Assembly (NCBI GenBank): GCA_002633005.1
Contig: NMRA01000002.1
Location: 1,891,023-1,955,022, forward strand
Source of the DNA: Phoronis australis
Taxonomy: Eukaryota > Animalia > Phoronida
Length of the DNA: 64,000 nucleotides
Reading direction: 5' to 3'
Shown: in pieces, positions 4,352 to 59,500 of the stretch
Layout: each line of letters begins with the position of its first letter
Position numbering within the stretch: the first letter of the stretch is position 1
The notes under the pieces: model-generated
What the model was told of the DNA's origin: nothing
The model's input: the letters and a program-made list of their open reading frames with translations, nothing else
Databases searched by the model: none
Made by a program: the position numbers and the translations under genes

Positions 4352-5375
4352 GACAAAGGAATCATGGTGGTATTGAACTTTTAACGTTAAAGAAGTTCAT
4401 TAAAACGACCAAATTCAATTTACAAACAAATCTTATTTTGTTTGGTTATATGGTTTTCAGTATATTTTGACTCAAAAGTCATCTCCGGCTCCCAGAGTTA
4501 ATTATCAGCAGGCAAGTTACCCAGACGATTACCAACTTTCTGCCTGCGGTCACTAGTCAGTAGTCACCACAACGTCGACAAGCGTAGGTTAATTGTTGCA
4601 AACTAGAAAAAAGGGTGCAGGTGACCTGATGCCTTTTGCAGTGCATCAGACAAGCTTATGTCGCAAGGCTGGGTCCATTACATGAATCACCTGATTATGA
4701 CTCACGGGAACCCCACACCAACGGTTTCGTCGGGTAAAATCTTCCATTCTGCCCGTTTGTTCAGAAAGACAGGTTTACTATCTGGTCATAGCATCACGTG
4801 GCTACGTTTTCGGATTCAGTTTATAAACAACAAGACGTTTATCATGAAACTCAAAGACATCATTCATTTGCACAATCGATAAGTCAATAAAAAGTTACCG
4901 GACAAACGAAGATGAGAATGAAACGGATTTGGCATGGTTTGCACGATGACAATTTGCCGCGTTAATTATTCGAAGAGTCAAAGCTAGATTCTGTGCGTTA
5001 TGATCAAGATGCAAGGAAAGGCATAGAGACACAATGTGCCCATTGTCCAAAACAATACACTGGTTTCCAAAAACAGACCTTACCAAAAATATCTTCTCTG
5101 TGAATGAGATTTGAGAAACTAACAAGGAAAACAATACAGTAAAAATGGAGGTTCTCTCCTGGACGTTATACAATGATAACGTTAAGGGAAGCATTTGTGC
5201 AAAATAAAAACTTCTCTTTGTCATTTAAGCTCTAAATTTTCCCAAAAAAACTTCTATTTATGCATTAAATTAGTATTTTGATTAGCTATTGTTCATATTT
5301 TTTATTTTACATCTTGTATTTGATTAAATAAGTATCCACAATAATATTTTCAATTCTTTTTTTATATCCACTAAA

Positions 5376-20093
<14,718 letters not shown>

Positions 20094-21181
20094 GGTCTTT
20101 GAGCTCAAAATTAAGCTTGAGAATAGAATAATAGCTCGTTCGGGTTTGTGATTTTTATTGGAAAGCAGATAAAATGTCTGGTGAGAGGGTAACTGTGATG
20201 CTTAAAATGAGTGTTCACAAAGGTGTCTTATCTGCCGACTTACCAGTATTTAAATAACTTTAGATATGTATGGTAAAAATTAAAATTGCCATGATTTTTC
20301 TGTTTTTCAGCGGCGTACCACATTGTTGCAAATGTTAAAAATTTTACCAAATATTGTATTGTAGTAGCTAAACCATACCAACCATGCTGATAGCAAAGTG
20401 AATTTTCCTAAAAAGTTATTTTTGTTGTGAAATTTGACAAAATGAAGTTTCATCTGTCTGCCATATTGTGTCCCAAACTGAAGAATTTTTACCGTAAAAT
20501 GCTAATTTTCTGGCCAATTACATGTGCTTCCATGGGCGCTCAGGACCTAATCACAAATCACACCATTGTAATGTAGGGAACAAGGCAGATGTCTGGCGAG
20601 CAGTCTCCTGATTTTTCAGACAGTGGATCACACGTTCGATCTGCTTTCTGATTTGATGGCTTGTGAACTCTGTATAAAAGTGCAGCTCTGGAAATGTTTT
20701 ACCAAACTGAACAACAGCGGGGTCAGAGAATGTTTTAAAGTGGATATGAGATGTGAAGATCAAAGTCAAATCAGATGTTGAAACTTTGAACCTAGTAGTA
20801 CATTAGTTCCAAAACATCATCGCAACAATAAATTACGTTTTTGAAAACTAATCTGAGCCCAGGGTCTAATCACTGAAGTCAGACTCTACTGAGTCGCAGA
20901 CTGTTGTAGCCAATGACGTTACATGGTTTTTTGCACGGATATGTAAGTTTAATTGAAACATGCCATTCAGTTGTCAACTTTTCATTCTGTTTTGAGTACA
21001 AAGATTCCACTTTGGGCTCTGGACTTCGTAACAGTCAGCAAACTCTACTCAGTTCATAATTTAATTTTTGAAAAAGTAGGAACCCCGCTGTTTGGCAATT
21101 ATTTTGGTGCTATCCTATAATTTTCGTTGATGTATATGTTGTGCTGTGTGTTTGTTATTTATTTTTAATTCTGTGAATGAA

Positions 21182-22889: not shown

Positions 22890-25508
22890 ACATGGCGCGT
22901 CCTATGAGTGTGAGAAGAATTTATCACCAACAAAACTTCATGAAAACCAGTTTAATATGCTGAGAAGAAAAACAAGTGACATGAAGGGGTTTATATGGCA
23001 TGTTTTTGTCTGTGTAAATGCGCAATGTTTCGAATAGTTGACACACGTTTTTAATTTCTATTTCATTTTGGTGTATCAAAAGTGAGTGAATTTCTCATTG
23101 AATGCTTCGACAAGCATTTGTTCCCAGTTCGTGCACTGCAAACGTGATTCGAATATACCGCTGGAAGTTTCTCAATAGACGACAAATGTTGGAAGTTCAC
23201 TACGTCCAAGCAAGTGAAGTTGCGTTAGTATTAGATTTAGATGGAGTAAAATTTTTGGTACCGGGGTTTTCCGCAGATAATCCCATGGGCGTGTATTGGG
23301 AATATGAAAATTTTCAGGCATTTCAGTAACACCAAATAAACGCCCGGGCGTTTATTCGGAAAGAGGTGGAGTGTAATCGGAAAGTCATTTTTTGCATGAA
23401 ACTCTTGTTTAATTTCAAGTAATAAATACATAGTTCGCCAGCATTTTGTTCCTTTTTATAAATGCTCTATGACAAAATTGAATTCGTGGCTAAAAGTTGT
23501 CACTAAGTGGGACATTTTCCTAATAAACGTCCTACTATCCGGACACTTGACATCAAAAGTTGTAACACGAAATAAACGAACATGGACGTTCATTCGGCAT
23601 AATTTTCCGAATAAACACCCATGGGCGTTTCAGCGGGTAGGCTTATCTACGTAAAATTCCGGTATCAGTTTTTTGTGCATAACCTGAAAGCTTTCGGGGT
23701 GTTATTTTGGAGACAAGGTTAATCCTGGGTTGGAAAGGACCTGAATTCATTGTGCGGCACGTTTTTAGGGAGTGCGCTCGGCGAAACTGATCCTGCCACT
23801 CGCGTATGTTGCGAGTAGACTGGCTCGCAAAGAGGTGAAAATTCGACACTCGAGGAATGATTTAACACCGTTATCGGATGTCACACATCTTCCCATGGCA
23901 AGTGCTCGGAACCAAAAAAACGAACTTAAAATTTATACAAACGGTCTCGCAAGTCATTTGTTTCTATTTTAGGCTCCTTCCAGGGGACGAAATAAACAGT
24001 GAAGCTATTAATTTTAGTCGATGTGCGTTTGTGCCGTGGTCTTTAGGAACACTTTGCTTTGTCTTAGTGATAGAAATTACGCCAGTGCACGTGTAAATGT
24101 ACTGATAAAAGTTGGAAAATAATTCCTTGCTTGTGAGAAGCACTTTTTCTTGTCCATAATTAATGAGCATGGGCNACATGGTGCGTCCTATGAGTGTGAG
24201 AAGTATTTATCACTAACAAAACTTCATGAAAATCAGTTTAATATGCTGAGAAGAAAAACAAGTGACATGAAGGGGTTTATATGGCATGTTTTTGTCTGTG
24301 TAAATGTGCAATGTTTCGAATAGTTGACACACGTTTATAATTTCTATTTCATTTTGGTGTATCAAAAGTGAGTGAATTTCTCAATGAATGCTTCGACAAG
24401 CATTTGTTCCCAGTTCGTGCACTGCAAACGTGATTCGAATAGATACCGCTGGAAGTTTCTCAATAGACGACAAATGTTGGAAGTTCACTACGTCCAAGCA
24501 AGTGAAGTTGCGTTAGTATTAGATTTAGATGGTAAAATTTTTGGTACCGGGGTTTTCCGCAGATAATCCCATGGGCGTGTATTCGGAATATGAAAATTTT
24601 CAGGCATTTCAGTAACACCAAATAAATGCCCGGGCGTTTATTCTGAAGGGGGGGGCGTGTAAACGGAAAGTCAGTCTTAGCTGATATGAAAATATCAGTG
24701 ATTTTTTGCATGAAACTGTGTTTTTTAATTTCAAGTTAATAAATACATAGTTCGCCAACATTTTATTCGTTTTTATAAATGATTAATGCTCTATGGCAAA
24801 ACTGAATTTGCGGCTAATAGTTGGCACTAAGTGGGCTTTTAAGAGGACATTTTCCGAATAAACGCCCTACTATCGGGACACTTGACACCAAAAGCTGTAA
24901 CACGAAATAAACGAACATGGACGTTCATTCGGCATAATTTCCGAATAAACACCCATGGGCGCTTATTTACGGAACATTCCGGTATCAGTTTTTTGTGCAT
25001 AATCTGAAAGTCTTCAGGGTGTTATTTTTGGAGACAAGATTAATCCTGGGTTGGGAAAAATGCCATGAAAGGACCTGAATTCATTGTGCGGCACGTTTTT
25101 AGGGAGTGCGCTCGGCGAAATTGACCTTGCGACTCGCGTACGCTGCGAGTAGACTGGCTCGCAAAGAGGTGAAAATTCGACACTCGAGGAATGATTTAAC
25201 ACCGTTATCGGATGTCACACATCTTCCCATGGCAAGTGCTCGGAACCAAAAAAACGAACTTAAAATTTATACAAACGGTCTCGCAAGTCATTTGTTTCTA
25301 TTTTAGGTTCCTTCCAGGGGACGAAATAAACAGTGAAGCTATTAATTTTAGTCGATGTGCGTTTGTGCCGTGGTCTTTAGGAACACTTTGCTTTGTCTTA
25401 GTGATAGAAATTACGCCAGCGCACGTGTAAATGTACTGATAAAAGTTGGAAAATAATTCCTTGCTTGTGAGAAGCACTTTTTCTTGTCCATAATTAATGA
25501 GCATGGGC
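22890..25508. repeat. Apparent 1.3-kb duplication (22890-24174 vs 24176-25508), probably uncollapsed haplotypes
   Basis: Colinear copies that abut exactly at the single N at 24175. Confidence 0.9.
24545..24984. mobile_element. TA-flanked Tc1/mariner/pogo-like MITE (other copy at 23259-23664)
   Basis: Begins TACCGG...CCCATGGGCGTGTATTCGGAA and ends TTCCGAATAAACACCCATGGG...CCGGTA; internal repeats of GAATAAAC(G/A)CCC in both orientations. Superfamily is inferred from the TA ends only. Confidence 0.7.
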
Positions 25509-25684: not shown

Positions 25685-26321
25685 CTGGTATCAAAGTTTT
25701 CGATGCATTCCATTCCAAGTCGTCGTATCTAAAGTGACAATTACAATAATTGGTGACGGACTTGATCAGCGCTAACCGAAACCGCAAGTTTTCTGTTGGC
25801 CTGTCTGAATTGTGTCGGCCAACGGATTTCCTTAATTGACGGTAATTTCTTTGTGTTTTTAAATAAATTTAGACTTAATCTGTGACGTAACATTGGGGGG
25901 AGTGTTGTGAGTTGAGTTGAAACTACCGCTGCCAAATTAGTAGTTAGTCGTATTTAAGTGAAAAATGACGTGCCGGTAAGTACCGAATGCGTGGTTCGAT
26001 TCTACATTAACCGTATGAATACCATATGCAAAGGTCCATTAAGGTGTCCAAGGATACAATTACATAAGAATTGCATGAGTAGGCTATTTCTCATAATTTC
26101 TTTGACGTGGGAACGCAAATGCACATGCTTAAAAATTTACCACGAAAGTAAATTTGTGCTTGCTCTGTGGGTGGTTCAAAAGTAAAATCGCACACAAGTA
26201 AAATTCGGGGGTTCTGCCATGAGGCGGAGTGTTCCGCCCGCGCCCTCGATTACATGTAGGTATGCTACTACAAAGTGCCCGGCTCCGGTGTTTTTTGGTA
26301 GGTGTGTTCCTGTTGGCTTTT

Positions 26322-27788
26322 ATGTTGTGCCTTCCGGGCTATATTTCATATTTTGAAAATTCAGTTTTGTTGACATAGCCACTGGGTTCAGAACAGAGTC
26401 TGGAGAATGCCAGTTTGAGTACGAGTAAGCCGTTTCACTTAGTGGAATCATCCCTGGGCTGTGTTTCGTAGACCCAAGAAACCCGACTGGTCACAAGGTA
26501 TCGCCGGGTATCGCGGGGTGTTACTAGCAAAGCTCGTGATCACACGAGAGGCCGAAGCAATTGGGGTCCGTTCAAGTTATAACCGATGGGAAATTCCGGT
26601 CCGCTTCAGCCTGTACTGTGACAATTTTGTTTCTAAATTACCGTTGAAGTGAGCGGATTATTTTGACCCGATTTTAGGTGATGAAATTGGTATAAAGATT
26701 AGCTGAGTGGGCAGCTGAAAGTAGTCTCTTTGAAACAGTTATTTAAAGGACATTTTTTATTTACTCTCTACACTGTACCTAAAATAGAAATTTTAAAGCA
26801 GATACAATTGACGCCTAAACCTTTTTCACACCTCCCCAAACACATCAATCAAATATCCAGCTACTAAACGGATTGATGACGGAGGTTGACAAATCAAATC
26901 CTTCGCCCCAAGTCAATGACAGGTGACCTACCGTTTTCTTTTGTTGGTTGCAATCATGTCAGTGCTGTTGGACGTTCGAGACACACAGTGAGAGAGTTGA
27001 TTCCGTGATTCGGATGTTTGATCATAAATGAAATTATGCAAATTTGGCATTTCNATGTTGTGCCTTCCGGGCTATATTTCATATTTTGAAAATTCAGTTT
27101 TGTTGACATAGCCACTGGGTTCAGAACAGAGTCTGGAGAATGCCAGTTTGAGTACGAGTAAACCGTTTCACTTAGTGGAATCATCCCTGGGCTGTGTTTC
27201 GTAGACCCAAGAAACCCGACTGGTCACAAGGTATCGCCGGGTATCGCCGGGTGTTACTAGCAAAGCTCGTGATCACACGAGAGGCCGAGGCAATTGGGGT
27301 CCGTTCAAGTTATAACCGATGGGAAATTCTGGTCCGCTTCAGCCTGTACTGTGACAATTTTGTTTCTAAATTACCGTTGAAGTGAGCGGATTATTTTGAC
27401 CCGATTTTAGGTGATGAAATTGGTATAAAGATTAGCTGAGTGGGCAGCTGAAAGTAGTCTCTTTGAAACAGCCTTATTTAAAGGACATTTTTTATTTACT
27501 CTCTACACTGTACCTAAAATAGAAATTTTAAAGCAGATACAATTGACGCCTAAACCTTTTTCACACCTCCCCAAACACATCAATCAAATATCCAGCTACT
27601 AAACGGATTGATGACGGAGGTTGACAAATCAAATCCTTCGCCCCAAGTCAATGACAGGTGACCTACCGTTTTCTTTTGTTGGTTGCAATCATGTCAGTGC
27701 TGTTGGACGTTCGAGACACACAGTGAGAGAGTTGATTCCGTGATTCGGATGTTTGATCATAAATGAAATTATGCAAATTTGGCATTTC
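26322..27788. repeat. Apparent 0.73-kb duplication (26322-27053 vs 27055-27788), probably uncollapsed haplotypes
   Basis: Almost identical copies that abut at the single N at 27054. Confidence 0.9.
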
Positions 27789-32696: not shown

Positions 32697-33245
32697 TTAG
32701 ATGTTTGTCTCTCTGTCCAATAAAATGCCATTTTTTAATAATTGTTCCTCATCGAAAAAAATGCTGACTTCAGCTTTTTTTGCCGGACTTTCATGATTAG
32801 ATTTGCGGTTAGTGGCAGGAGCTTGCTTTGGGTACTGGCCAGAGTGGTCATTGTCATACAAACTTTTATTACTAATTGTAACAGTGTTACCAATTACTGA
32901 CTCATTAACACTATGATGGCTCCCCATGGAACTTCCATCACTCCCAGGAACTGGCTGGCAAGATTCCGTGTTGGAACTCTGGGACGGTAAGCTGTTGTTG
33001 GTGTCGTCGGTGTGGGCCCCAGAGGGGTCTTTCTCCAGCCCTTTCTCACTGCTGCCACTCGAGGCCTTTGAAACTCCCGAGAGGCGCTTACGAGATGGGA
33101 GCCGGCTACCGAAGGAGGTCACGGAGTTAACCTGGTGTCTCTCTTCATTGGAGATGGCCGTTCCTTTCATAACTGAAGACGGATGGTGGTTAGGGTCAGG
33201 CACTGCTTCAGTAGTCTTTTGAACTCCGGGGTAGGGCATAGGACG
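32697..33245 (-). CDS. NRG: NRG-like last coding exon (Ser-rich tail ending ETNI)
   Basis: ttgcag|RPMPYPGVQKTTE...FFDEEQLLKNGILLDRETNI TAA; 549 nt, phase 0, matches the preceding donor. Confidence 0.85.
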   Translation of the reverse strand, partial: RPMPYPGVQKTTEAVPDPNHHPSSVMKGTAISNEERHQVNSVTSFGSRLPSRKRLSGVSKASSGSSEKGLEKDPSGAHTDDTNNSLPSQSSNTESCQPVPGSDGSSMGSHHSVNESVIGNTVTISNKSLYDNDHSGQYPKQAPATNRKSNHESPAKKAEVSIFFDEEQLLKNGILLDRETNI

Positions 33246-36200: not shown

Positions 36201-39200
36201 GCTTCCAGGAAATGATGTAGATGGCCGGCCTAAGCGAAAATTCAATGCAAGGCAATCATGAAACTGCATACTTACAGACTGGGGTGGCCGTGAATCAACT
36301 TGGTCGAGGAGTGGTAGTTCATGATTTGCAATGTTGTAATTATTCTGTCGTCCGCGTTGTTTCCTAAATATAAAAAGACCATTTAAAGGCATGGTTATAT
36401 TCATATCTGGAACAGATTTTCGGAAAAAGGAAAACCCTGCACTAATAATTTCAACCTGTTTGTAGCTGGCCAAGCATAAGTAACAGTGGCTATGTTTTTA
36501 CTTATAACAAAACTCATTCCTGTGTTATTAAGAATTCTCTTAACTTTCAATTTCAGTACACTTATTAGCTTGCAATCACTAAAGCAAACATCACTGTCAC
36601 AGGATGTTTTAGTAATCAGGATATCACAAAAGTAACACAATGGCTGAAGAAAATGAATGAAAGCAGCATTTGAAAAAAATTTTCTGACATGTTTCTAATT
36701 GCCATTGGTTACTTCTTTTGAATTCTGTTGAAATGCCTCCACTGAATTCGTGGTACGAGCTTGAATGACAGACACGCCAAATACTACCAGTTCTATCCAT
36801 ACTGTAGAGTAGTTCAACTGTATGGTATATTTTTGATATCCCACCACCAGGTGGCGTTGGGTGCAAAAATATGTAGCTAGATTTACTTGTGAAATGTATA
36901 ACAATTTACAACTTTCTTTCACTTTTATACTTTTCTGATAATGAAAATGTATTTAGAAAATAGACCACAAGAATTTCAAAAATATGCCTCCTTGTTTTAA
37001 ATTGAATTTTTTTTAAAAATTGACCTGCACACTGAAATGCACCCAGCTCAGCATATCAAACAATTTAAACCTAATTGGTACAATACAGAACAATGCTCAT
37101 TACAATGGTCAACCACTGAATGAAAACAAGTTACTGTGACGTGCAATTCATGGGAGAATAACTCAAATGAATCAACCTAGTGACACGGCATGATACATAC
37201 CTATTGTAGAGAAAACACATGATCATCACTATAAACAACAGTACACCAATGATAATGCCCATGGCAACGCCCATAGCTATCACATTCTTTGGCCTCTCCA
37301 AACCTGTCAAACACAAACATTTCTTCCATGAGGAGCTGATGGTACAACTGGCAAAATTTGACACAAGCCGACGTGGTACTATCCAAACTTGCAAAGAAAA
37401 AACACAATAGCTGTGTGGCGGACTTTATCAAAGCATGCCTGACATTCCTAAAGGTACAGTCTCCTTTCAAGCATTGTAACCAAATGTTTCAAATCACTGA
37501 ATCCATACTTTTCATGTGGAGAATCCATACTTGTTCATGAGGAGAAATCATGGCTTCCTCATTCACAACACAGTGTACCGTACTCAGCCAGGAGTCCGCT
37601 CAGGGTACATAAATTCGGCAACTGAAAATCATGGGGGAGGGGGTAGGGTGTTTACCGGAGCATAGGTGCCTAGAAACGAAATTTTGTAGATGTCGGAGGT
37701 GGATGCTTATCCATACAGTTGAATGAGTTAATACTCGGGGCGCCACTTTGACGTCGGACATCTCATGGAAAAGTAAAATAAAACAGAGGATTGTAGACAA
37801 CAAAATAAGGGACTTGCTATCAAGAATAAAGTGACTGCACAAAGTAATTCACAGCAGCACGACACAGCTTTTGATGTGGTGTATATTTAATTTTCTGTTA
37901 CAAACATTATACACATACAATGAGCTGGTTACGCATTGACAAGAATGCTTTTGCCAGGTTTGCAGACAATAATAGAATGTGCACAAGCCAAAAGAACCAT
38001 TTCATGTCTTGTTCAGTGAAGACCAGGAGAGTACTGGGTATTTTCCCTAGCGAATTATGCAAGGTTCTGTGGAAACCAACTGGTAAACTAATCTCATATT
38101 TTACGAAAAGTAAAATGCTGATGGCAAGGGCATTCCCAAAGACACGGGCACATTTATGGAATTCTCGGTTGTATACATTGAGGGTGGGTGGTAAGGCAAA
38201 AATAGGAGTGTAAACAACAAAATTTGCGAATTTCAAGGGTGGGCGGTAAAGTTGAGTATTGGTGTTAACCTAGACAAGTACGGTACTTGAACTATGCTTG
38301 AACTTTAACCACATAAAACTAGACACCGAAACAATAAAGTAGACAGCCAAACAACACAGCTCGATTTGTTCCGTTCAAAAATAGGTTTTAAATATTGCAA
38401 TTAAGCAGTTAAGTAAGAATTCTTTGGATTCTTGGTTTTTACAGTTTGAAATCAACATCAGCAATACTTAAAATAATCATGCACTAATAGTTCTGGCATA
38501 TGACATAATCACTGGTTCATTTGTCAGGATACAAAGCATTTGTGTGTTATAATTTATACACCAAACACATAGCGAGAGTGAAATCACTGGAAAGTGTGAT
38601 TCATGCAAAGTCATAGTTTTGCAAATGAGAAGTGTGCAAACCTAACAGCAGCCAGTGCTATTGCAAGATTCATTAGGTTATTATTGTGCTACTGCAAAAA
38701 TACACATTTGGGAGCAAAGAATGCTCAAATTCTCCAACATGTACAAATTGTTTTAACCTTTTGCAGAAAGACGGCATTTCTTTACAACAATCAAGTAACC
38801 ACTAAGTGGAAAACTATAAAGCATTCAAGAGACACATAGTAGCAACAGAAATTTCAAGAGGCATGCAAGACAACAATAATGATAAAAATAGGGACAAACT
38901 AAACAAGACAACGTGCAACTTTAAACAGAGATTGCTGGCAACTGAATGAAAGAAAATAGAGCACAAGACAGGGTGAACTGAGGAGAGCAAAGCCCATGCT
39001 CTGAACGAGAACGTGCAAACTAAAACAGCATGCAGAATAAAAAGAGATCTTCCAAACTTGGTAACCAATAACGGATGTTGAGACTACTTCCTAGGCACTC
39101 GCATGCTTGCATGTCTATTATATCATTGCTAAATAAACATAACATGGAAATTTCAAAACAAAAAATGTCAAGAATATATGGAAAATAAAAAAAATTCTGA

Positions 39201-42200
39201 GAAAAACATGCCTAAAGTTTTGAGCACTTGCAACACAGTGCAAGAGTTTGAATCATGCTCATTAGAAAAATGGTTCTGAATAAATCACGATGCAAGTGAC
39301 AGCTAAACTAAAAATGACATGCTCCATGGTACCTACTTGATCCCCAGGGGGGGTATCCTGGATACACTATTTCCTCACAACGTAAGCCGGTGTAGTTTTC
39401 TGGACACCTGCGATTCAGAGAGCGACAACATTGAATCGTCACAAATAGAAATGTGTTAAGCGACACCTACAGGGTAAAGCGAGTCAGGCAAAGACAGGCA
39501 GGCAGTTAGAGCAGACGACATCGTCGAAAGGGACACCTGAAAACTGTTCACTAATTCTTATCAGATCTTAAAGCATAGCATTGTCATGTGGGAACTTGCA
39601 ACTATGGAGTTCATCATAACATGCTCAGGACATGTCAAGTCCAATGTCATGGTTCAAAGGTCATAGGTTTGTTTCCAAATGGAACTAGACATGTTAGTAA
39701 CCACAATGACTATCTACATCTATAGACAATAGGAATAGTCGAGTTAGAAATTGGTCTAAATTTTGTAGTCATTCATGCCTTTAGTGGTACAAATTTCTAA
39801 AGAAAGTTCTAAATTCCACATGTAGTTGAAATGGCATGCATCGTACGACTAAAATTAAAGACACCACCTCCAATAATTAATTACAAAGACATTTTTAACG
39901 CACTGTCAAATGAAACGGTACAACAATAACTAATGAAATTCATAAACGATGTTCAGATATTGTTGAACAACTTGCGTTCAACCAATCATTAACCGCCCAC
40001 AGATTTACTTCCTAACCATGCCATGCTTTAAGACCAGACAGTAACTAGTGAACAAAAAATGAACATTAACTGGCGCCAAAACCCTGGAAGATGTGGACAG
40101 CGCGACAGTGTCTATCGATGGTGCTCCAAATGAAATGACAGGGTTTTGGCAAGGACAAAACGCCTAGTACAACACACGGCGTCACTTTACCTGGCAGCAC
40201 CGGTCGGAAGTCGACAACATTTTCCTCGCACCTTTCACCAGTAAAGCTGCTCGGACATCTGTATAAAACGTGGTCACGTGAATATAACAACATTTCTCAC
40301 AGATGTAAAAACTTCACTCTACTGTAATAATGAACAATTTTTGAAACAATGTATAATAACCATGGAGATAAAGTTACAACAAGTAAATGCTTAATTATTT
40401 TTGATAGAGTTAGAGAACAGAAAAAGGAATAGACAAGTCCAAAAAATTTATTTACCGTACTGGTTAATTTATTTGCTGACCACCAGAAAACCAGAAAAAG
40501 TGGAATACAAAACCCAAACATTGCAAACATATAACACCAAACCGTTCATAGGAGCAATCCCCATGGTGCATCGCAAACTTCATTTTTCGAAACAACATCG
40601 AACCAAAAAACTTCAAAACATGAATACATTGTCAACAGGGAAATAAAATTGCTCCAAATGGACACAACACTATGGTATCCAAAACTGGCAAGTGTCGTCT
40701 GCTTCCTTACAGAGATGAATAGTCATGGGGTTTGGCATGCACTTCCCAAGATATGCCCCTCACCTTTTTCCAATTTCTATAAAAATCCGATTTCTTAAGA
40801 TATCAAGTTGACAACTGAATGCCCATGAAACCCTACGCTCCGACAGGATGGTGACAATATGCACCCACATATACATATGCTGGCACATAAAAAGGCAAGT
40901 TCAAATTAACTTCAACAAATTTAAACAGAAGTTATCTCCATTTTAATAACATACATTTTACAGAAACACTTCTTTCCATGAATTTAAATATTATCAAGAT
41001 TGAAGTTTAGTCATCCAATTACATCAAATCAAAAAAAAACTAACTGAGCACACATCCTGGAAAGCACAACAAAGGAGCATCAGGACTACAAGAGCATGCT
41101 TTATAGATAGAATTTTCAGCAAACTTACTGGCAAAGCCTTTCATTTAAGCGTGGAATGATGGCGCATTGACCACCGTTGAAACAGTACGTTTGTTCAGCA
41201 CATGAAACCCAATGTTCTTCTGAAAATAGACGTTAAAATTATGACTTTAATGCATCAGGCTCCTTGAATTAAAGTTATTGTCAGGTAACTTGGAGTAGGG
41301 AAGACACATTTCTAGAGATATCAGCATAAAGCGTTCGTTGTAAACTGAAAAACACCGCCCTAATCGTACAGGAGACGGGATCTCTGCCCGACTGTTTGAG
41401 ACATGAAACTTGTATACACCCCCGTTCTATCAAAACTAGCAGTGGTCTCAGGTTAACTGAAAGCTTTTAAACCAAACTTCTATCTAAATCAACTTTTGAT
41501 TTTCACCACGCATCATAACAAAACTGGTTTCACCTTTTTCATAACTTTTACCGCAAGTAATTAGCATTTTAACATTAACATAGAAAATACTAACATTTTG
41601 GCCAATCACGTGTAACCACCATGGATGAACGGAGACTGGCCACAAATCAGTAGGCTTCTCATGGTAAGACCATTTTGGCAATTATCTTCATGGAAACTCT
41701 GATTACCAGTTCCCAATTAACATGTCAGGATAAAAAATAAGACTTTTCTTACACTTACTTTTAAAAATGGTTGTGCTGGCAGGCGTTGTTGTTGTAGGTT
41801 GAGGCAATAATACTGTAAACAACAATAACAACAACATTGACAATATTCGTCGTTTAACAAACAAGAGCTGTGAAGAATAAGTAAAAGCTCGCCAAGTTCG
41901 AACAAACAAATTGCTAAAATCAAACTTTCTCTGTTTTCAGAACCATTTTCACAATAGTCAAGATATTGTGTGATGGTTATGGTAGTACAAAACCAGAAAA
42001 TGATGAATTATCAATTGCAAACGTTTGTGAAATCGCGTAAATAGAAATTTTAGTATCCTCCATGTTGTATCTTAAATCGGTGGGATTTTACGTCTAACAT
42101 TCAACACATGACAGTTACGATACATCACACAGAGGAATTGATAGACACAAGAAACACGTCAACTTGAAAACAATTCATCGCACCAATTAAGAAAACATTT

Positions 42201-45200: not shown

Positions 45201-48200
45201 GAGGCTAAAACTAAAGGCTACTCCATGGATTAGACCACACCCAGCCCTAAATTCATACAAATGCAGGTTTTGGTTTTATTGGTGTCTGTGGAATCTATGA
45301 AATTGGCTTGGCTTACAGTACTGTAGACCAACTGGATAAACCTTGTGCGATACTCAATTGCTCAGCAATGAACGGGTAATCAGTCCTTTTGGATTTTACC
45401 TTTAGTAACAACACGTGTCCCTGGTTATCTTGGAAAGAATGTTTTCCATGTTAATTAATGTTGTTGACATGGTGTGTACCAACAATCCACGGAACAATGG
45501 AAAGCGATGTAAACGGCTTAGAAAAAGGCAGACACAATGACCGACACAAACCCTGTTTTATAACCACTAGGACATTGCGTTTGTTCTATGAAAGTGAATA
45601 CAGAGTCGCGATGCGGGACTTAGCTGGACCATTCACAGCGCTTTCTATTGACCCTTGGAGGCACACACCAATGAATCTCCAAGACAATCAGGGATCAGCA
45701 TTTCTCCTCAATGTAAAATCAAAATAAGGTTGCTTTATCGTTCAACTTCCACTTCTGCGTCAGTAAAAGTACAGAGGCCCTTTTGTATTATGTGATAAAA
45801 GTTGCATCTCAGGAACCTATTTTAACCAAATCCTCCTGCCAACAGCAATTCTCTGAAAACTGATGTTTCAGGATGGTAAACGTGTGAAAAAACAAATATT
45901 AGTAGGAAACAAAGGTCTTTCATATGGTTATGTAAGTTCCAATGACATCAATATGTTCCTGTTCTCCAACAAATGTCCATTATAACACCTGAACTCACCT
46001 GTAACAGAGACATTTTTGGCCGATGCCCCTAACAGGTTGATGGCCCTGCAAGTGTAGACCCCAGCATCTTTGGGACTGGCTTTTTTCACTCTCACCACGG
46101 ACAAGGTGCCTTTTCTGAACAAGAGGGAAAAATTACAAGACTATAGTTTTTAAGTATGCTTCTCAATCACACAGATCTTGCGCACAAACTGTGACCAACA
46201 ATAGTACTGGTCGTAACGTCACTATTCGCAGTACCTGGTGTGGTCACCTGTTTTACTTCTGGCAAGTACATCAACTATTGGCTAACTGGAAGATGAGTAT
46301 TGAGAAAAAATAGCGCCTCCTCTGGGAATTTCATAGTAAAGTATCAGAGCTGAACGAACGTTGTCTATGATCTCTGATAAAAATGAAGATGGCAAAAAAT
46401 GCACAAATGAACACGCAGACGTCCAAACAAGCATTGCTTGTCTGTCATCAGTAACGGTGAAAATTCAAAAAATGAAATACGACAAGCAGATAATTAACCA
46501 CTCAAATTAAATTATTTGGTTCTGTATTATTCTCAAACACTTGCGCACAGTAATTCAAAATGGGGGCAGTTAGTGCACAGGGAGCAGTCGGTTACGCATT
46601 TACTGTAACGGTCATTTTGGGCATATTTCAACTAATCACATGTCCTTTGTGACCCTTCAACTGCAAGAGGAACAGGACACCAGCAGGGACAGTCTAGAAC
46701 AACATCTAACCAGATCCAATAACATCACAGAATGTAGCCAATTAACATTTGCAAGACCAGAGGGTCTTGCAGCAATACTTGCACCTCATTGGAGTTAGGC
46801 AAGAAATAAGCGCCTAATGTTCTCAGAAGACTTTATGCTATTGCAATGCAGAAAAAAAATAATTGGTTTATTTGAACAGATTCCGACATATTAGTTAACG
46901 ATATTGACTGGGTGGTTTTGGATACAACTATGCCTGACAGTAACATGCAAAATTAAGAACGAAAGCATAGAGTTTTTGTGCATGCTGAGTGAACTGAAAT
47001 CCACCCACAGGTAAAATCTCACTTAGGACGCTATATGGCAGATGAATGAAATTTTACTTTTTCATTTTTTGATAAAACTAGCACCAAGCAAATTCATTAC
47101 CATTTTAAATTTTTATGCCACTGTGACCATTGAGAAATTGTGAACATTCAGAACAATGTTAAAAGCCTTTAAAAACTGAAAAGGTCAATTTTGGCAATCC
47201 TTTTTGTTCAAAAAGATTGGTGGGATTTTCCGTAACTCGACTCCTGGGAACAGGGAGAACGAGTTTGACAGGAAGCAGACGTGTTTTGCACAATGGAACA
47301 ATTCGCTGCGTGGTATAACTATTAACAAAAAGACAGACACCATGCAAAATTTCAGACTTCGTTGGTGGAATCATTGTCATTTTTTATGTCACGGCTGACG
47401 CTCAAGGTCGTAAATAGAGTACGTATGACCTATGGAGTATGATGTGCTCCAACAAAACGAGGTCAATGCTGAAGCTCACGATATACGGCGCTGGAACGTG
47501 CATATTATGTCAAAATTTTGCATAAAGCTAATTGCTTTAATAAAAAATGAATGACGAAAATGATTCTGAAGTTTTGCAAGTGTTCTAACAGAATTAAAAG
47601 AACGAAACATGAAAGGTATTTCTTGATTTGTGGCTAACAAAAGAAACGGTAGATGAAAGAAACCACGTTTCTGAGAAAATGAAGTAAAAAGTCAGATTTT
47701 GGAAGCACTAAAAATAGTAGTTGCCATAACCATTTTAAAAGCAACACCCTCACATAACAATATTAGCTATTACCCTATCACCAGTAAACACATTATGAAA
47801 CCAATTGAAGATGACACAAAAACAAAAAAGCAAGTTTCGGAGAATTTGCCACGATGTAATTGGATTTTGCACTTTAGCTTCAGAATGAAAGGTGGTAGTC
47901 ATTAAGTTGATGGAGTCAACAAGAGCAGACTTCAAGGAAAGGAGGAAGTTTTGATGGCAAAACAACTAGTCAAGCACTTAACAGCAAGGATTGAATGACT
48001 AATAACAATCAAGTTATGAGCAACCACGGATGATGGGACTTCTTGGCATCATCAAATGTCATTTAAAAGCTAAAAGCTGAAGAATATGAGACAGGTAGTA
48101 TAGCACCTGTTAACGAAACAGAAAAACAAAAAACAAATTTTGCACCAGTTCTCAGTTAAACAGCTGCAGGGAAAATTTAGGTACTACAGCCCTAATTCAG

Positions 48201-50674
48201 TTAGAACATTTGGCTTAGATTTTTTGTACCTTTATCACAGATCATGATTTCTTTCGGTGTACAACGTACAACAATTTGGATTAATTTGATTTTTTACCAT
48301 CTTATTTGCCAAGCTGAGGCCCAGCGACTTAAGTCATGTTTATCAGTATCAGAGACCCAAAAACAATCCCTCCTAGATCCACTTGCTCCCCCCCCATTCA
48401 GTGGAGCATCCACAACACACATCCTTCACATGGCACACACTGGCCAGTAAGTTGCCCTAGTGCGTCCACACCACCACTAAACCCGGCAACAACAATGTTC
48501 CAGAACTTTCTAATGTTATAGGAAGGCAAACTGGTAGTGTGGATGGCACTCTATAATCCAAACATACAACATTTAAAGAAGGTCATGTGTCAAACACCAG
48601 TCATTGTCCTGGTCATTGAACCAGTAACTTGGGTTTGAAAGGTTGAGTCCTTTGACCTTACTTAAAAATATCAGGAAGATTTGTTGAAGTGTAGAAAGTA
48701 AAATCATAAAAGCCGAGATGAGCTCAGCCATTACTCAAGTAGGCGTGTTAAACCGGATTTACGCTTCTCACTCTGGTGATTTTACAAAAAAAAACAGTCA
48801 GCCTACAACTTATTTAATATCTCAACACAGGGTGTGACTATTCAACGCCTAGAGCATGAAAACATGGTTTCGCGTTTTCGGTTTCTACGACAACCCATAA
48901 AAGGCATTATATGCAGCACTTTCCACAAATAATGAAAATGTGTCGGAAGTACGCCAACATCAATAAAAGTGTGCGTGACTCGAGCTTTTTCACATAGATG
49001 GACTTTAAATTTTGCAATTCAAACATTATGCTGGCAGTGCACTGCTTACTTGAGTACTTTCACAGTATTATGTACATAAATACCATAATATAGAATGAAA
49101 ATGTATCTATTTCATGTCTTCTTCAGTAAAGAGCAGGAGAGTATGGGTATTTTCCCACCTGAACAAGGAAACGTTTCACTGAAAATGACAAATCATTACT
49201 GAAGGTAATTACTTGCATGCTACTAAGGGAGCTAAATTCTATGACCATTCACAAAGACACCGGCACATTTAGGAAGTCTTAGTCATATAAGTTGGAAGTG
49301 GTTGCCTGGGCAGTGAGCCGAACATGGGGGTTAACCTGAACCAGTGCACTAATTACACTAGACAACAGTGTAAGTTAGCTGATGACCAATGAGCGCCAAA
49401 CAAGAAATAAACAATTATTTTTATGGTTACACAAAATATCGATCTTACAATCAGCATGAAACCTTTTGGTAGCATTGCATATTAAATAATAAGGTGTGTG
49501 AAAAAGAAACACCAATTAGATGGATATAAATGTTTTCTAAATATTTATAAAATGTTTAAAACAAAACTTTAAATATTTGGGTCCACAGACAAGCTGACAG
49601 ACTGTTAAACTGATGGAGTCTGCAGTAAACAGTTTGACCCCACAGTTATTTTATGAACATGTTTTCTACTAGCTTACAAGAAACAGAATCCCTGGTTAAT
49701 AGCAAGGAAACATGGGGGTTCACTGAAGCGTGCACAAGACAGCTAGACACTATCAACCCAGATTATCTGGACCGGGTGTTTTTTTAAATACTTCACACCT
49801 GAGACTGGGTCAAATAGCATCCTACTGGGCTGTAAGTTAAAAACAAATTATGTTCCCCACAAGAGAAGGAAGTGTCAGAATTAGTGCCAAGAGAAAGGTA
49901 CTCAAGATTTGATGAATTGCTTGGAATACTTGGCTTTTCAATGGAAAAGCAGCCAAAGACTGGCAAAGGAGATTGTTAAACTGAACAAAATCGGAGGGTG
50001 AATTGGGTGAAATCAGGAAGATTGAAAGCCGAAAGGTAAAATTATGGATGCATGGATCACCCTAGGGACCATTGCTGAAAAAGACATTTGCTGGCACATA
50101 CGTAGAGTGGCGGCTCTACACTCGCTACTCCTCCACTTTAGCATTGATGTAATGGAGAATACATCAAGAGGCCCTCATTGTCTGAACCATACCCTCTCTG
50201 ACCAGCATCCCAGATCTGTACTTCACATTACTATAAATATGCTAAAAGCCACATGCTAAACATCAAAGACAGAAGCTGAAGAGTTCGGACGAGGGGTACA
50301 GGCTTGTACCACTCTGACAACCACATTGCTACTTCGTGCCTATTTTTTGTTGAACACAAACATTTTGGAATCGTAAAACGAAGGAACAATATTCGGAATT
50401 TCAATATTTCTCAAGCCAAAATGGATATACCATGAAATTTTGCAAAACAAAATGTCTACGACAACCTAACCAAAAAAAGTATTTAGGCTGAAGACCATAC
50501 TCCATACTCACTTGTTTGCTCTTATTTTCAACCCTTGCCTTTTCTTAAGCGGCTCGCCATCCTTGGTCCATGTAATTTTTGGTGGAGGATTGGCAGACAC
50601 TCTACATTTAATAACAATTTTTTTGCCTTTTTTAACTTTCACTTCACCTATCTTCTTTATATTTGGAGCTTTGG
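32697..50674 (-). CDS. NRG: Pro-neuregulin-like EGFR/ErbB ligand (Ig-EGF-TM-cytoplasmic tail), 5' end not identified
   Basis: Phase-consistent exons 50674-50512, 46114-45999, 41812-41759, 41219-41129, (40258-40191 or 39407-39337), 37303-37201, 36363-36276, 33245-32697, about 410 aa. One I-set Ig domain followed by one EGF domain split between Cys4 and Cys5, then TM and RKQR...NIAN, is the neuregulin layout. Which vertebrate paralogue is closest cannot be told. Confidence 0.88.
36276..36363 (-). CDS. NRG: NRG-like cytoplasmic juxtamembrane exon
   Basis: atttag|G KQRGRQNNYNIANHELPLLDQVDSRPPQS|gtaagt. Confidence 0.88.
37201..37303 (-). CDS. NRG: NRG-like transmembrane exon (103 nt)
   Basis: tgacag|GT LERPKNVIAMGVAMGIIIGVLLFIVMIMCFLYN AG|gtatgt. 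Confidence 0.92.
37576..38285. mobile_element. TA-flanked non-autonomous DNA element in an NRG-like intron
   Basis: Left TACCGTACTCAGCCAGG versus right reverse complement TACCGTACTTGTCTAGG; an internal segment recurs near 49110 (ATTTCATGTCTT.TTCAGT.AAGA.CAGGAGAGTA). Confidence 0.7.
39337..39407 (-). CDS. NRG: NRG-like EGF C-terminal exon 2 (beta-like, 71 nt), mutually exclusive with 40191-40258
   Basis: tcgcag|G CPENYTGLRCEEIVYPGYPPWGS A|gtaggt; phase 2 to phase 1; C-x3-Y-x-G-x-R-C intact. Confidence 0.85.
40191..40258 (-). CDS. NRG: NRG-like EGF C-terminal exon 1 (alpha-like, 68 nt)
   Basis: atacag|A CPSSFTGERCEENVVDFRPVLP G|gtaaag; phase 2 to phase 1. Confidence 0.88.
41129..41219 (-). 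CDS. NRG: NRG-like common EGF exon (Cys1-Cys4)
   Basis: tttcag|(K)EHWVSCAEQTYCFNGGQCAIIPRLNERLC CA|gtaagt; H-x-x-x-C and C-x-N-G-G-x-C as in neuregulins. Confidence 0.93.
41759..41812 (-). CDS. NRG: NRG-like Thr/Pro-rich linker exon (54 nt, symmetric)
   Basis: ttacag|(V)LLPQPTTTTPASTTIFK A|gtaagt. Confidence 0.8.
43897..44127. repeat. Minisatellite, about 54-bp unit, 4+ copies
   Basis: AACTGGTGTCTCACTGAAGTGATCATATTCAGTCAAAGGTGAATTCATGGCATA starting at 43908, 43958, 44012, 44068, with a partial copy at 44122. Confidence 0.93.
45999..46114 (-). CDS. NRG: NRG-like Ig exon B
   Basis: gttcag|A KGTLSVVRVKKASPKDAGVYTCRAINLLGASAKNVSVT G|gtgagt; D-x-G-x-Y-x-C motif. Confidence 0.93.
48735..49350. 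mobile_element. Diverged second copy of the 37576-38285 element, same orientation; ends approximate
   Basis: Shared blocks ATTTCATGTCTT...GGGTATTTTCCC, CAAAGACAC.GGCACATTTA and GTTAACCT in the same order. Confidence 0.55.
50512..50674 (-). CDS. NRG: NRG-like Ig exon A
   Basis: tttcag|CC KAPNIKKIGEVKVKKGKKIVIKCRVSANPPPKITWTKDGEPLKKRQGLKIRAN AA|gtgagt; Ig Cys and W-x-K-D-G. Confidence 0.92.
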
Positions 50675-53440: not shown

Positions 53441-56088
53441 AGAGGATTTCCGGCTCATGAACCAAAAACAATGGTTAAGAAAGATGACGCTGCATGGTGC
53501 TTTGAAGTGTGAAATTACAAAAGAGAATATTTGGCAATCGATATTGATTAACACTCTCTGTGTAGGTGGTAAAGTTTATAGATAGTATTAACCTATTTCC
53601 CTAACTTATTAGTCTAAAAAGAGGCAAAAGAGGCAATTTCACAGACAGATCACAATGACTTCAGTCTGTTAAATGCATACTGCCTCAAAGAAACAAATCT
53701 CCATTATTGCTGCACTATAGAAAGACATGACCTGACTTACTAATGCCATCCTCAACCTTTTCATCCGCATCATCACCTCCAGCAACCTCAATTACAAGTG
53801 GAGCGGCTAATGTCAAATTTCCCGGATACGATACTGTTGAATTTCCCACGTATGCATCTGTAGCCATTGCAAAGAGACTTCCTAGATATCTGAGAATTGT
53901 TGATCTTTGAAAACTATTCCACGCTCAAAAGTGCGAGTTCATTCTTTGCCCAACACCGAGTGAATGAAAGTAATAATGGTTCAGGGATTTAAGTATTCCG
54001 ACAACTGTCACATAAATTGAGACGATAAAAAATGCCCTTATGTCCATATATAGAATATATCAGTCACGCACAGGTAGTTAAACAACCATTAATCTCCTAG
54101 TCTAGCTTCATATAGGTGAATGCTCCAAGTGGCTTAAAGTAGTAGTATAGATTTTTTCCGCGCCACTCCTATTTCCTGTGTCAACTACTGAGCTAATTAC
54201 TATCGCCACACCACACAATCCATTCACGGAAGCAACAGGTAAGTTCTTCATACAAGGAGCGACTTTCCTTGGCAAGGCAATCCAGGTAAATAACACGAAA
54301 GCAACTATAAACTATTTTATGTCAACACAGATAAGAAAAAAATCCAGGACACCAAGCCCATGACACTTCGTCTGGTGGGTAAACAATGAAGTCATAAAAT
54401 AGCAGCCTTGAACCAAACACTCAAGTAAAAGGTGTTTTTGTACATTCACACAGGCTTGGGCAACACAACAAGCCTTCAGAAGTTCAGTGTTGAACACATA
54501 GGCACAGCCTCACAGCAGGATTAGAGGTCACAAAACCAGTTTAGAAATGGGCCTCAATGGAATCACAGCATCAACAGAGCAAATGGGTCAGCCAAAGTTT
54601 GCTAAATGATGGCCGAGTATAAAGATGGGAAAATGAACACGGATAATTTTTCAGATTTTTTTTTCTGCATACGGTAGTAATACCAAGTAAATGCTTCATT
54701 ATTTTTAAAAATCTATGCCAAAGCTACTATCTACCAACAATTCTGAGACACTGTGAGCATTCACAAAGTAAGAACACCATGAAAAGTGAAAAAGCCCACA
54801 TTTGGCAATTGTTTTGTACAAAATTGGCGAGATTTTTTTACTGGGTCTTTATTTGTATAACTTTGGAAACAAATGGCACAAGTCTGCAATAAATCTTTTC
54901 AAAAGTTATAATTTAAAGGTTTAACAACCCATGCTTTCTGTCAATTAAATTGCAGCAAGTTCCCATCAGTGGAAAAGTTTAACTCTACTCCAATGTAACA
55001 CACATATATTCAGTTGACAGTGCTAATCAACAGTGCCATCTGGAGTTTAATCCCTGGAATTGGAGGTAACTCCGATGTTGTAACCGTAGAGGAGTTAGTG
55101 GGAAATGTGAGAGGAGACCTGAATTTCCGAATAAGAAAAGCAGTATCAGACAAAAAACAACAAATGTCATCTCAAGATGTACAGGTTTGCACATAAAGCA
55201 CAATTTGTTAAATTAAAAGCTGTTTTTGTTCAAAATCCACCTGGCCATGGTTGGCTCATTCGGACTGCTTGCATATGACCAAGTTTTGAGAGAAAAACTG
55301 CTGTCTCACAAAACGACAAACTAAGGGAGTGTCAAATTGACAGTACATACCCGACTGACAAATACCAAATACTTGACGACAAAACAATATTTGAGCACCC
55401 ATTGTGAACTTTTTAATCTACTCACGTGATAGGTAAAGATTTTTAACATGGGAGTTTGGGCAGTAGACCCCTGAAGTGACATGGTAGGGAGCGTACTAGT
55501 AAAGATTCAGTACAGCCATAGCTATTGGCAGATTTATGAGACCTGTCAGCTTTTGACCAAATTTTACTAGAGCCACAATTGAAAATTGACCAAGCACATT
55601 CTATGATTCCATTAATTTTTGCCAATTCAAGACATGTTAATTGTCAATTTTGTAGTATAGTCCAGTCCAGTCCAGTACAATTTGGAACTGACATTCCCCT
55701 ATTACCTGACCTGGAATGGTTATGGCCTAAGGATGGATGCCACAAACAGGTTAAATGGTGTGTAACCAAAACATGAACAAAACAGTTCACACAGCCCTGC
55801 TTCTACTATCCACAAAATATTTACCCATTGAGCCTCTACTTGACATGGCTTACTAAATCTAGTTCACCAACTGTACCTGGCATCCTGTGACGATCCAATT
55901 TAAAGGTGTGTTTTTTGACAAACAGGTAAGCCTGATAACAAGCAACTACATGATGTTGACATCTCAGATAAAGAACAGCGGCACGCTGACCTCATAAATG
56001 CTCTAAAGAATTTTCGAGGTTATCATAGCAGACTTAAACACCCATGGCAACTTGAGTTCAGCCAGTGTTCACTATAGATAATAAAAAC

Positions 56089-56563: not shown

Positions 56564-59500
56564 TGAAGTCTGTATGAAATCTCTGAAAAAGTTGACCTAC
56601 AAAATACATACCTAAGTCCAACGAGAGACCACTACTACTCTCATGTGTGCTTTTAACCATCTTCACCTCAATCCAAATAACAACTCCTAGTAAGCTAATA
56701 ACCAGTATTCCAATAAATCATCAAACTGTGACTGATTCGTATGTGCCGGTAGTTAACATTTCGTGTATTTTTATTAATTATCAAAAATTTAATCACCGGT
56801 AGAGCTGAGGGACTCCCCCACATTTTTACACAATGATTAACCGTATGGCTCGACAGGTATGTTATAAAGGTGTGCCAATCTCATTTCGTCAGGTGAAATC
56901 GACAGCTTCCTTCAACCGCTTGACTACCAGATAATTAGGTCATCAATCACGCTTTATGTGGGCAAACTGGCATTTTCCAGAATATTCTTGTAATGTAAAC
57001 ACTTCTTTATGACTTTTTGCTGGAAGGAATTGTGGTAATTATAAAAATTTCAGTCACGATTATACTTCAGTCATCAAATATTTCTTCACTAAAATTATTA
57101 ACAGGCGCACTCAAGCTTGTCACTGTCTCCAATCTGGCTATAACTGAGCTCCAGGCCCCAATATTGTCATATGAGTCTATGATTCCGGTATGCCAAGAAT
57201 GTCTATGGACAACAATAAATCCAGGTGTATTATAATAGTTACACCTGAAGCAGATGGGTGTTAGAGTAGACATGACTAATACATCATTCTTGGTGACAAA
57301 TTGCCACTATACACCCAATTTATTAGTAAATGATATTTGCATTTGATATCTAAAATTTAATGGCTTGACATGTAGGTGTAAGAATTATTTGTGCTCTACT
57401 ACATACCTACGCATATGTCCAAAGGATACAGCAGGTAAAGACAACGATGTCTGAAGTACACACAGCCATGTTAAACTGGACATTTTTTGAGAAATACCCA
57501 TTACACATTCAGGGAACATGTTTTCAGGAATGAAAGGAAATTCTTATTATCGCAAGCATTTCATTAAAATAGTTAGGTTTTTTGGGTTAACATTTGCTAC
57601 ATTGATTTAAACTCAGTTTCTTTGTGTATCACATTTTGATAAGTTTACTACATAGGGATCTCACTTTCATTGAGCTACGCGAGGTAAGATATGATTTTTC
57701 AATCCTCAGACATTCCTTATAGTGTTAACTTTTGGAGAAGTCTGGTCTCGAAACAAAAGAGTTATGGCCAGTAAAATCTGGCCAATTTTGCAAATAAATA
57801 AACTACCACAATTGATTGAACTTTTTTACTTTCCACAGGCTTTGAAAATTGTTGATGATGCCCACAATTACTGAAAACATTTATCTGATGGCAAATATGG
57901 TAAAAAAATTAAACTGACGAAGCATTCATTTGTTGCTACTAATCATTAATGAATCAACTGAACAAATTATATAAAATTTGACTTGTCTGCCACCTTGTGT
58001 CATAAATTGGTGACATTTTACCATAAGGTAACCGGGAGTGGTTGTGAGATCTTGTGTCTTAGCATTGAGATTGTAGGAAACATGAGAAATAACAGGCAAC
58101 AATGAAAGTAATGTACATGGTTGGTTATCAACAACACGAGACACTTGACAACGTCATGGCTGTAACTAGGACACCACCTATGAACAGAAATGAGAATTAA
58201 CTACCACACAACATGCACTGGGAGTCTACACTAAATTTGTCTTCAATGTAAGGAGGACAAATTAATAGCCACATAAACTCCTCTGCACCCCATTTGTTGA
58301 ATTTGAAAGGTTAGCAATCAAAGCAAATTCTAGCTGCTGAAAATCTTTCCAATCCACATTGGAATAATTAGCCTAAAGGAATGGACCTTTATCAGTCTTC
58401 AGCCATTTCTCCAATATCTCAGCTCTTATCTGTTAATGAATATACATATACAGACAGCAAACAGCCTACAGACTATCACCTTGGCTAAACCTCAAGGTCA
58501 ACAAAGCTCTGCCCCCAAGGACAAAACAAACAAACATTGGCCAACAGCAGCCAGGCTTTTCCTTATTGTTATGCCTACTGGTTACATAACATTGCATAAT
58601 GTTACATGTGCCAGGAGTGGGCTTCAACATTCCAGTACACACCTACACACTGCTCTACAAGGCCTACTGTACAACTTTTTCGATTTGGATTGATTAAAAA
58701 ATGAATTTTAATTTTGAAAATTTCTAATTAATTGGATGTTAGGAAAGTTTCATGTAACATTCTGTATTAACAGTTATCAAGGAAGACCATTTTTAACATT
58801 TGTACAGTGAACCTTTGGAAATGGGAAAATTCAATTGCGGCTGTCATTTAGGTGATAACTGAAGAAGCTGTAAACAATCTTCTTTAAACCCAAAGAAATT
58901 GAATTTGGAATTGTGCATTGGACTTACTCAAGAATTTGAAGATTGAGTATCTATCATGTAAACCAAGATGTAATCTCAAAACAGATGTCCCCATCAGTTC
59001 AACTGACAGCAAAGAAGAGAAAATTTCAACAGAAATCCCTTGCCTATTTGATATATGATACACAAAAACTTTACATCCCCCCATAAAAAGATTAACTAGT
59101 CTGTCTGTTATCTTAGAAGTTCTGGTCCAAAGTCCTGTGGGGTGGTCTATTGGTACCTAAGGCTTAGTCCTGGACATACGTCAAAAACATTGATGCCATA
59201 AAAGAACATTTGGCCGTTTACGTTATTTGTGGCAAGGTAAATTCAACCTTTGAAAAACAGAAATACAACAATTATCCTTGTTCAAAATAAGTGAAGAGTT
59301 ACATTAACTATCAGAGCACATAAATCACATAGATCACCCAACTGTGAAGCACAGACACTAGCTCCACATGGTGGTGAATAAAAACACTACAATGAGACAT
59401 GGACAGCAGTCACAGTAACTTCTATGAAGTGCAATACAATTATCCCAGCAGAGACAGTTTAAAGATATATCATTTGTGTTTAGTTCAAGGATGATAGGAA

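Follow-up and report, generated by a model that had tools for sequence, protein, structure and literature searches.

Genes in the window and identity of the neuregulin gene

The window, meaning the whole 64-kb stretch of DNA that was analyzed, carries a RINT1 gene and, adjoining it on the minus strand, a neuregulin gene encoding Ig, EGF and transmembrane (TM) domains (Table 1). The exons of the latter were linked into one chain by RNA reads and by one assembled contig. The RNA data comprised three raw-read runs of one study (X2, X3, and X4), of which about 18-19% of each run was read, and an assembled contig set from another study (X1). Junctions were listed at a threshold of 3 reads with 2 starts, and the junction numbers, given in the order X2/X3/X4, are upper counts in which the mates of one fragment may count twice.

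Table 1. Positions of genes, exons and candidate regulatory elements in the window, and of the tandem exon pair on a metagenome contig.
Feature	Position	Strand	Remarks
RINT1 gene, ~13 exons	2700-20100	+	adjoins neuregulin gene
Alternative 5' exon	53741-53942	-	ATG at 53867; 5' end not fixed; X1 contig spans 53741-53942
Ig I-set exon 1	50512-50674	-	Pfam I-set E 5e-11; 11/11/21 reads to Ig exon 2
Ig I-set exon 2	45999-46114	-	Pfam I-set E 1.6e-4 (below cut-off); junction reads
Ser/Thr-rich spacer exon, 54 nt	41759-41812	-	loose-end consensus from Ig exon 2; 6/13/19 reads to EGF exon
Common EGF exon, Cys1-4, 91 nt	41129-41219	-	ends in phase 2; AG/GT ends
Exon A, Cys5-6 and stalk, 68 nt	40191-40258	-	major form; junction reads (see text); X1 contig
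Predicted 40-bp RNA stem in A-B intron	39545-40054	-	arms 40054-40015 and 39584-39545; duplex -46.7 kcal/mol
Exon B, Cys5-6 and stalk, 71 nt	39337-39407	-	minor form; junction reads (see text)
Cluster of 9 GCATG (4 TGCATG), candidate Rbfox-type elements	38478-39322	-	downstream of B; first 15 nt from donor
TM exon, 103 nt	37201-37303	-	phase 1 to 2; junction reads
First cytoplasmic exon	36276-36363	-	16/8/21 reads from TM exon
Last coding exon, cytoplasmic tail to stop	32697-33245	-	loose-end consensus at 36276; ORF
Metagenome locus L001, tandem Cys5-6 exons, 50 and 59 nt	5781-6034 (own contig)	-	phase 2 to 1; 145-nt intron; animal-looking

The 5' exon inside the window joins the first Ig exon in frame (junction 53741>50674, 1/0/5 reads). 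Loose read ends indicated a second upstream exon that also splices to this Ig exon and sits beyond the window end (64000). Its end resembles the N-terminal domain of other spiralian neuregulins (NRGs), and the two alternative upstream exons recall the alternative N-termini of NRG1. A 38-base intronic stretch (57988-58025) was covered 41-121 deep by partial RNA reads that continued elsewhere, and is a repeat shared with another abundant transcript.

Pfam, PDB and the reads place Ig I-set, EGF and TM domains within one transcript, the domain combination of the bilaterian "NRG-type" ligands (PMC4914847). At E<=0.5 the common EGF exon had five PDB matches, each of them to human NRG1 (best E 0.0012). 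Pfam returned no EGF match for the half-domain EGF exons and no match at all for the two tail exons, in which the intracellular neuregulin domain was not found; because that domain has been reported only in deuterostomes and a priapulid (PMC4914847), its absence here was expected. A phase-2 intron precedes Cys5, and Cys6 lies 19-20 residues from the TM segment; a Cys4/Cys5 intron beside the TM segment is a mark of ErbB ligands, vein included (PMC1618406). The series of N-terminal domain, Ig I-set, spacer, EGF, TM and tail is alike in the invertebrate NRG ligands, namely vein, SISS-1 and the spiralian NRGs (PMC4914847). By its domains and intron position the gene encodes an NRG-type ligand, as the preliminary description of this DNA had proposed, and is predicted to activate an EGFR/ErbB receptor. 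Searches with the tail exon found no NRG relative among longer proteins (0 of 1086 candidates) and none in 1.84 billion representatives, and the 2 of 12 candidates obtained with Ig exon 1 were unrelated multi-Ig proteins.

The neighboring RINT1 gene provided evidence on lineage. Its best protein matches, 47-51% identical, were to a hemichordate, two annelids and two of three amphioxus records. An 11-row tree, which included 10 named homologs of the 20 found (10 unnamed fragments were excluded) and contained no mollusc, brachiopod, phoronid or nemertean, placed it as sister to annelids with support of 94/98. Among seven fixed topologies the annelid sister position was best; hemichordate, echinoderm, Ambulacraria, amphioxus and arthropod placements were rejected (p-AU 0.001-0.03), and a stem position was not (p-AU 0.226). 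Grouping with deuterostomes in a free arrangement was not rejected either (p-AU 0.167). In the neuregulin gene, the tail motifs RLSGVS and PSQSS-x-TES, the TM segment and the end of the exon beyond the window match by eye the nemertean, annelid and oyster NRGs of PMC4914847. Hemichordate and sea urchin NRGs carry extra EGF repeats after the Ig domain (PMC4914847), which are absent from the window gene. The RINT1 tree and the NRG tail motifs together make a spiralian affinity quite probable, and the RINT1 matches and tree agree with the earlier impression of an invertebrate gene. The region of the first RINT1 exon occurs in two copies (1251-3562 and 3886-6188) that are 95% identical and have a single N between them, and further near-identical tandem blocks (22890-25508 and 26313-27788, 90-99%) are joined at single Ns; likely the assembler placed both haplotypes in series.

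The paired exons and their use in RNA

Two homologous exons, A and B, each with AG/GT ends and running from phase 2 to phase 1, supply the end of the EGF domain. They had been described from the sequence alone, and the coordinates, lengths, phases and peptides given for the region 39337-41219 were all recovered on the minus strand. The 3.8-kb intron between the common and TM exons contains two acceptors followed by C-x5-G-x2-C, against a mean of 0.015 expected from 2000 first-order Markov resamples (one site in 30, two in none), and no third such site was found on either strand within the 64-kb window. Both exons keep the core Cys5-x5-Gly-x-Arg-Cys6 with silent sites saturated. Only 29 of 68 bases are identical, and 9 residues are identical in the first 15 codons, just 3 of them by identical codons. 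Since residues were kept while codons diverged, the duplication is an old one and both copies are constrained. One RNA polymorphism was seen in exon A, a synonymous one. A and B differ at Cys6+3 and from +5 onward; their stalks, with 19 or 20 residues before the TM segment, differ as well, and an N-Y-T sequon is present in B and not in A.

Some neighboring sequences deserve mention. Read-through of the common EGF exon (41129-41126) meets a stop directly after Cys4-Gln, which could give a truncated, gamma-like form. At 39536 and 39466 on the minus strand, two look-alike acceptors (AG then GTGTC) precede the true acceptor of B by 129 and 59 nt, and each opens with an in-frame Cys codon followed soon by a stop; they may be decoys or relics of duplication, and no reads were listed for them. 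Three of the 14 minus-strand copies of the look-alike acceptor 7-mer lie within 130 nt.

The reading frame allows either exon but not both or neither, a claim of the preliminary description with which the positions of the stops agree. From the in-window first exon, A alone or B alone gives an in-frame product of 452 or 453 aa. With A and B together, translation stops inside B, 221 nt ahead of the last junction, for a product of 219 aa, and with both skipped it stops within the TM exon after 217 aa.

Both exons were used in RNA, with A the major and B the minor form. Reads joined the common exon to A (2/4/8, total 14) and to B (0/4/4, total 8, in two of the three runs), and joined A to the TM exon (6/7/16, total 29) and B to the TM exon (2/2/6, total 10, in all three runs); these are the junctions whose counting had been proposed as a check. 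Exon B accounted for 10 of the 39 reads entering the TM exon (26%, CI 13-42%). No junction from the common to the TM exon reached the listing threshold in X2, X3 or X4. The X1 contig set contained the A form alone, and the support for B comes from one study with low read counts. The proposal that the exons are mutually exclusive held in that homologous tandem exons are each spliced alone to common flanking exons, making the switch real, and failed in its strict form: exclusion is leaky, as reads joining A to B, which are out of frame, were present in two of the three runs (1/0/3, total 4) and made up 4 of 33 A-donor reads (95% CI 3-28%). Double inclusion leads to an early stop in human NRG1 as well, where the alpha-beta-2a transcript is a proposed target of NMD (PMC11360300).

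Sequence elements that may set the choice

GCATG, the Rbfox element, was the top 5-mer in an unbiased count across the three introns flanking A and B, with 17 copies in 3688 nt compared with 16 in 26062 nt of background (p 6e-8), the background being the other sense introns of the same gene plus upstream DNA, on the same strand. It was the sole 5-mer past the Bonferroni bar, and its single-letter neighbors were enriched at most about 2-fold. An apparent enrichment of TGTTGT-type words fell below that bar with the same-strand background and was dropped. The densest 1-kb span in the 64 kb holds 10 copies and the next at most 5. Five copies lie between A and B, and B has the arrangement of an Rbfox-regulated exon, a (U)GCAUG cluster downstream of the exon. 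In other animals Rbfox is expressed in nerve and muscle.

The A-B intron also contains a predicted RNA stem whose duplex energy was better than that of all 300 shuffles and all 32 control intron tiles, with a mean pairing probability of 0.88; the folding z of the whole intron was -3.0. Two GCATG copies lie in its 5' arm, and a branch-point-like motif lies in its 3' arm. The stem is single-copy within the window, a target-site duplication is not evident there, and it could be a decayed transposon end. Its imperfect pairs comprise four G-U and one C-A, a weak strand bias.

Steric exclusion through a short intron or a distant branch point was rejected, the A-B intron being 783 nt long and the AG exclusion zone of B 57 nt. 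Because the intron is too long for steric exclusion, exclusivity may be set by regulated competition, with NMD of A+B messages cleaning up. Rbfox sites downstream of an exon promote its inclusion and upstream sites promote skipping (PMC5840707). In Rbfox-expressing cells, occupancy of the GCAUG cluster that closely follows B would thus promote B, and the five sites in the A-B intron could favor A or oppose B, the net direction being a matter of inference. The stem may tune the choice, with two of these sites hidden and three looped out. Exclusive exons of C. elegans, on which Rbfox and NMD both act, are alike in having UGCAUG in flanking introns and would be alike in the frame-based removal of double inclusion (PMC4165533); the window gene differs in encoding a growth-factor ligand and in that its regulation is predicted from motifs. 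A literature search covering mainly freely accessible journals found no report that Rbfox controls whether NRG alpha or beta is chosen.

Origin of the exon pair and its significance

The layout is that of human NRG1 and NRG2 (events 147 and 148 of PMC8373072), which likewise have a common Cys1-4 exon, two Cys5-6 exons and a TM exon, with alpha of 68 nt followed by beta of 59 nt in NRG1 and alpha of 77 nt followed by beta of 59 nt in NRG2 (PMC8373072). Splice positions and phases are the same, the lengths of the Cys5-6 exons are 2 mod 3 in both, and the exon order fits alpha before beta, so the likeness to NRG1 and NRG2 noted at the outset is borne out. The window gene differs from NRG1 and NRG2 in its non-chordate host, in its second exon of 71 instead of 59 nt, and in having no Pfam neuregulin tail domain and, in the reads, no separate stalk exon between B and the TM exon. 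Human alpha exons have Pro at Cys6+5 and human beta exons Gln at +1 and Met at +5; A lacks that Pro, and B lacks the Gln and the Met. The human NRG1 alpha exon is the first of its pair and indeed has the 68 nt given in the preliminary description, but the match with A is weak evidence, because the frame permits only lengths of 2 mod 3 and NRG2 alpha has 77, the betas 59 and B 71 nt; it was rejected as evidence of ancestry. The TM exon of human NRG1 has 103 nt.

The preliminary description left two choices, that the switch predates vertebrates or that it evolved twice. A pre-vertebrate origin, at the level of Chordata, has already been published, and of the two choices the second is favored because A and B share a signature, C-E-E-x-V, that is missing from all four human alpha and beta exons. 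By hand count over 19 positions, A and B are identical at 10; A matches human alpha1, beta1, alpha2 and beta2 at 9, 8, 7, and 6, and B matches them at 7, 7, 6, and 7. The rule for common ancestry in PMC8373072 is that an exon be closer to its counterpart in another species than to its neighbor; with 10 for A-B and best cross values of 9 (A-alpha1) and 7 (B-beta), the pair failed it narrowly, the margins being one to three residues in 19. Between-species identity is thus not above A-B identity, which favors independent duplication. PDB searches with A or B alone gave nothing significant (the best E, 0.0035, came from summed Notch repeats, and NRG1 beta had E 0.15 for A) and were excluded from the argument on orthology. 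Taken together, these sequence comparisons suggest that the A/B duplication probably arose independently of the vertebrate alpha/beta pair.

Published surveys bear on the same question. The NRG1/NRG2 event has been dated to jawed vertebrates (PMC4494069) and, in supplement rows of PMC8373072, to Chordata. Of 85 chordate-age events searched across Bilateria, nine were found, plus one convergent, and NRG is not named among them in the accessible text (PMC8373072). Convergent duplication of such exons is common, with 27 families between human and fly (PMC9741552), and ACOX1 exons were duplicated three times (PMC8373072); the window gene and NRG1/NRG2 resemble these cases in their apparently separate duplications at one position of one gene family. 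In the accessible text most of the convergent cases concern ion transporters, enzymes or muscle proteins, and neither "NRG" nor "neuregulin" occurs in the main text of PMC9741552. PMC4914847 prints one sequence per gene, its main text contains neither "isoform" nor "splic", and it describes no second EGF exon; none is described for SISS-1 in the accessible text of PMC11686035. A search of mainly freely accessible literature, PMC11686035, PMC8474258 and PMC7297728 included, found no report of alternative EGF exons in a protostome neuregulin.

A metagenome scan for such exons returned nine loci (L001-L009), one of which, L001, has a tandem pair. Its two exons are identical to each other at 10 of 16 positions and to A or B at 6-8 of 16, and they share a motif of their own, unlike the A/B signature. 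The contig does not include the common EGF exon; a polybasic stretch is encoded by a likely exon at 2526-2371, and no TM exon was found between the pair and this next likely exon. L002 has a single exon and L004 is a multi-EGF locus. L003, L006, L007, and L008 contain later EGF exons, and L009 the first exon, of a multi-repeat gene; these five loci represent a related multi-EGF gene in which one repeat after another has an intron between Cys4 and Cys5, so an intron at this point also occurs outside single-EGF ligands. L005 was a chance match in bacterial-looking DNA.

We regard as doubtful the alternative that the alpha/beta switch is a bilaterian invention shared with vertebrates and older than the four ErbB receptors, in which an Rbfox-controlled first neuregulin would have had two tips for one receptor, A corresponding to alpha and B to beta or to the NRG4 exon. 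The intron, phases and exon order (A first, B second) are those of human, but the Cys4/Cys5 intron present throughout the family dictates the phases and the frame dictates the lengths, including the 68 nt that A shares with NRG1 alpha. Residue-level likenesses would also fit: E-N-V after Cys6 is common to A and alpha1, and B, as the betas, is hydrophobic at +3 and aromatic at +8. B matches human NRG4 at 12 of 19 positions by hand count, above B vs. A, NRG4 having been selected as the best among printed ligands compared by eye. The match in the second EGF half includes the N-Y-T sequon and Pro-Gly after Cys6. Leaky double inclusion is common to the window gene and human NRG1, the event is already dated to Chordata, and gene conversion between neighboring exons could mimic a recent local duplication. 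The tandem pair of L001, on a second, animal-looking contig, has a second exon of 59 nt, the length of both betas; its motif differs from that of A and B, and this, with C-E-E-x-V in A and B being absent from the human exons and NRG being absent from the events traced across Bilateria in the accessible text of PMC8373072, speaks against shared ancestry.

It is improbable that B is mainly a regulated poison exon, which after A would yield an NMD target or a soluble A ligand lacking the TM segment, a B-only ligand being secondary. Four of the 12 reads entering B come from A, though decay should deplete such messages, and the A+B product retains the A-type EGF domain intact and ends ahead of the TM segment; on the other side, eight of the 12 come straight from the common exon, and B keeps both cysteines, the Gly and the Arg despite saturated silent sites, which would be needless in the other frame. 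That B is a duplicate in decay with merely noisy splicing, or an artifact of assembly, is very improbable and already largely refuted by the junction reads: counts are low and from a single study, haplotype-like duplications occur elsewhere in the assembly and two look-alike acceptors lie upstream, but reads joining A to B on one molecule put both in cis, just 29 of 68 bases agree between the two exons, the B frame is intact, and a significant regulatory motif cluster flanks it.

On balance we lean toward an expressed invertebrate neuregulin, likely spiralian, with duplicated exons for the EGF end that are likely under Rbfox control and likely independent of vertebrate alpha/beta. Residues after Cys6 contact the receptor. 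The A and B ligands would be distinct after Cys6, in the N-glycan sequon and in their stalks. At one and the same receptor, the alpha and beta forms of NRG2 have unequal affinity and efficacy, and alpha antagonizes beta (PMC11060329). From these differences and the NRG2 precedent, unequal potency or release of the two ligands is predicted at the EGF receptor of this animal.

What is likely new is a probably spiralian neuregulin with alternative EGF exons, together with the GCATG cluster and the stem; the design itself is known from NRG1 and NRG2. It is usual to view the alpha and beta neuregulins as tuned to ErbB3 and ErbB4 of vertebrates (PMC11060329), and the spiralian ancestor is thought to have had one EGFR (PMC4914847). 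A working pair in a likely spiralian means that a two-tip ligand exists outside chordates. If the switch is ancestral, the event shifts back to Bilateria. If it is convergent, a growth factor joins the known convergent cases, and the window gene and L001 point to a receptor-binding tail that the Cys4/Cys5 intron has turned into a module duplicated time and again.
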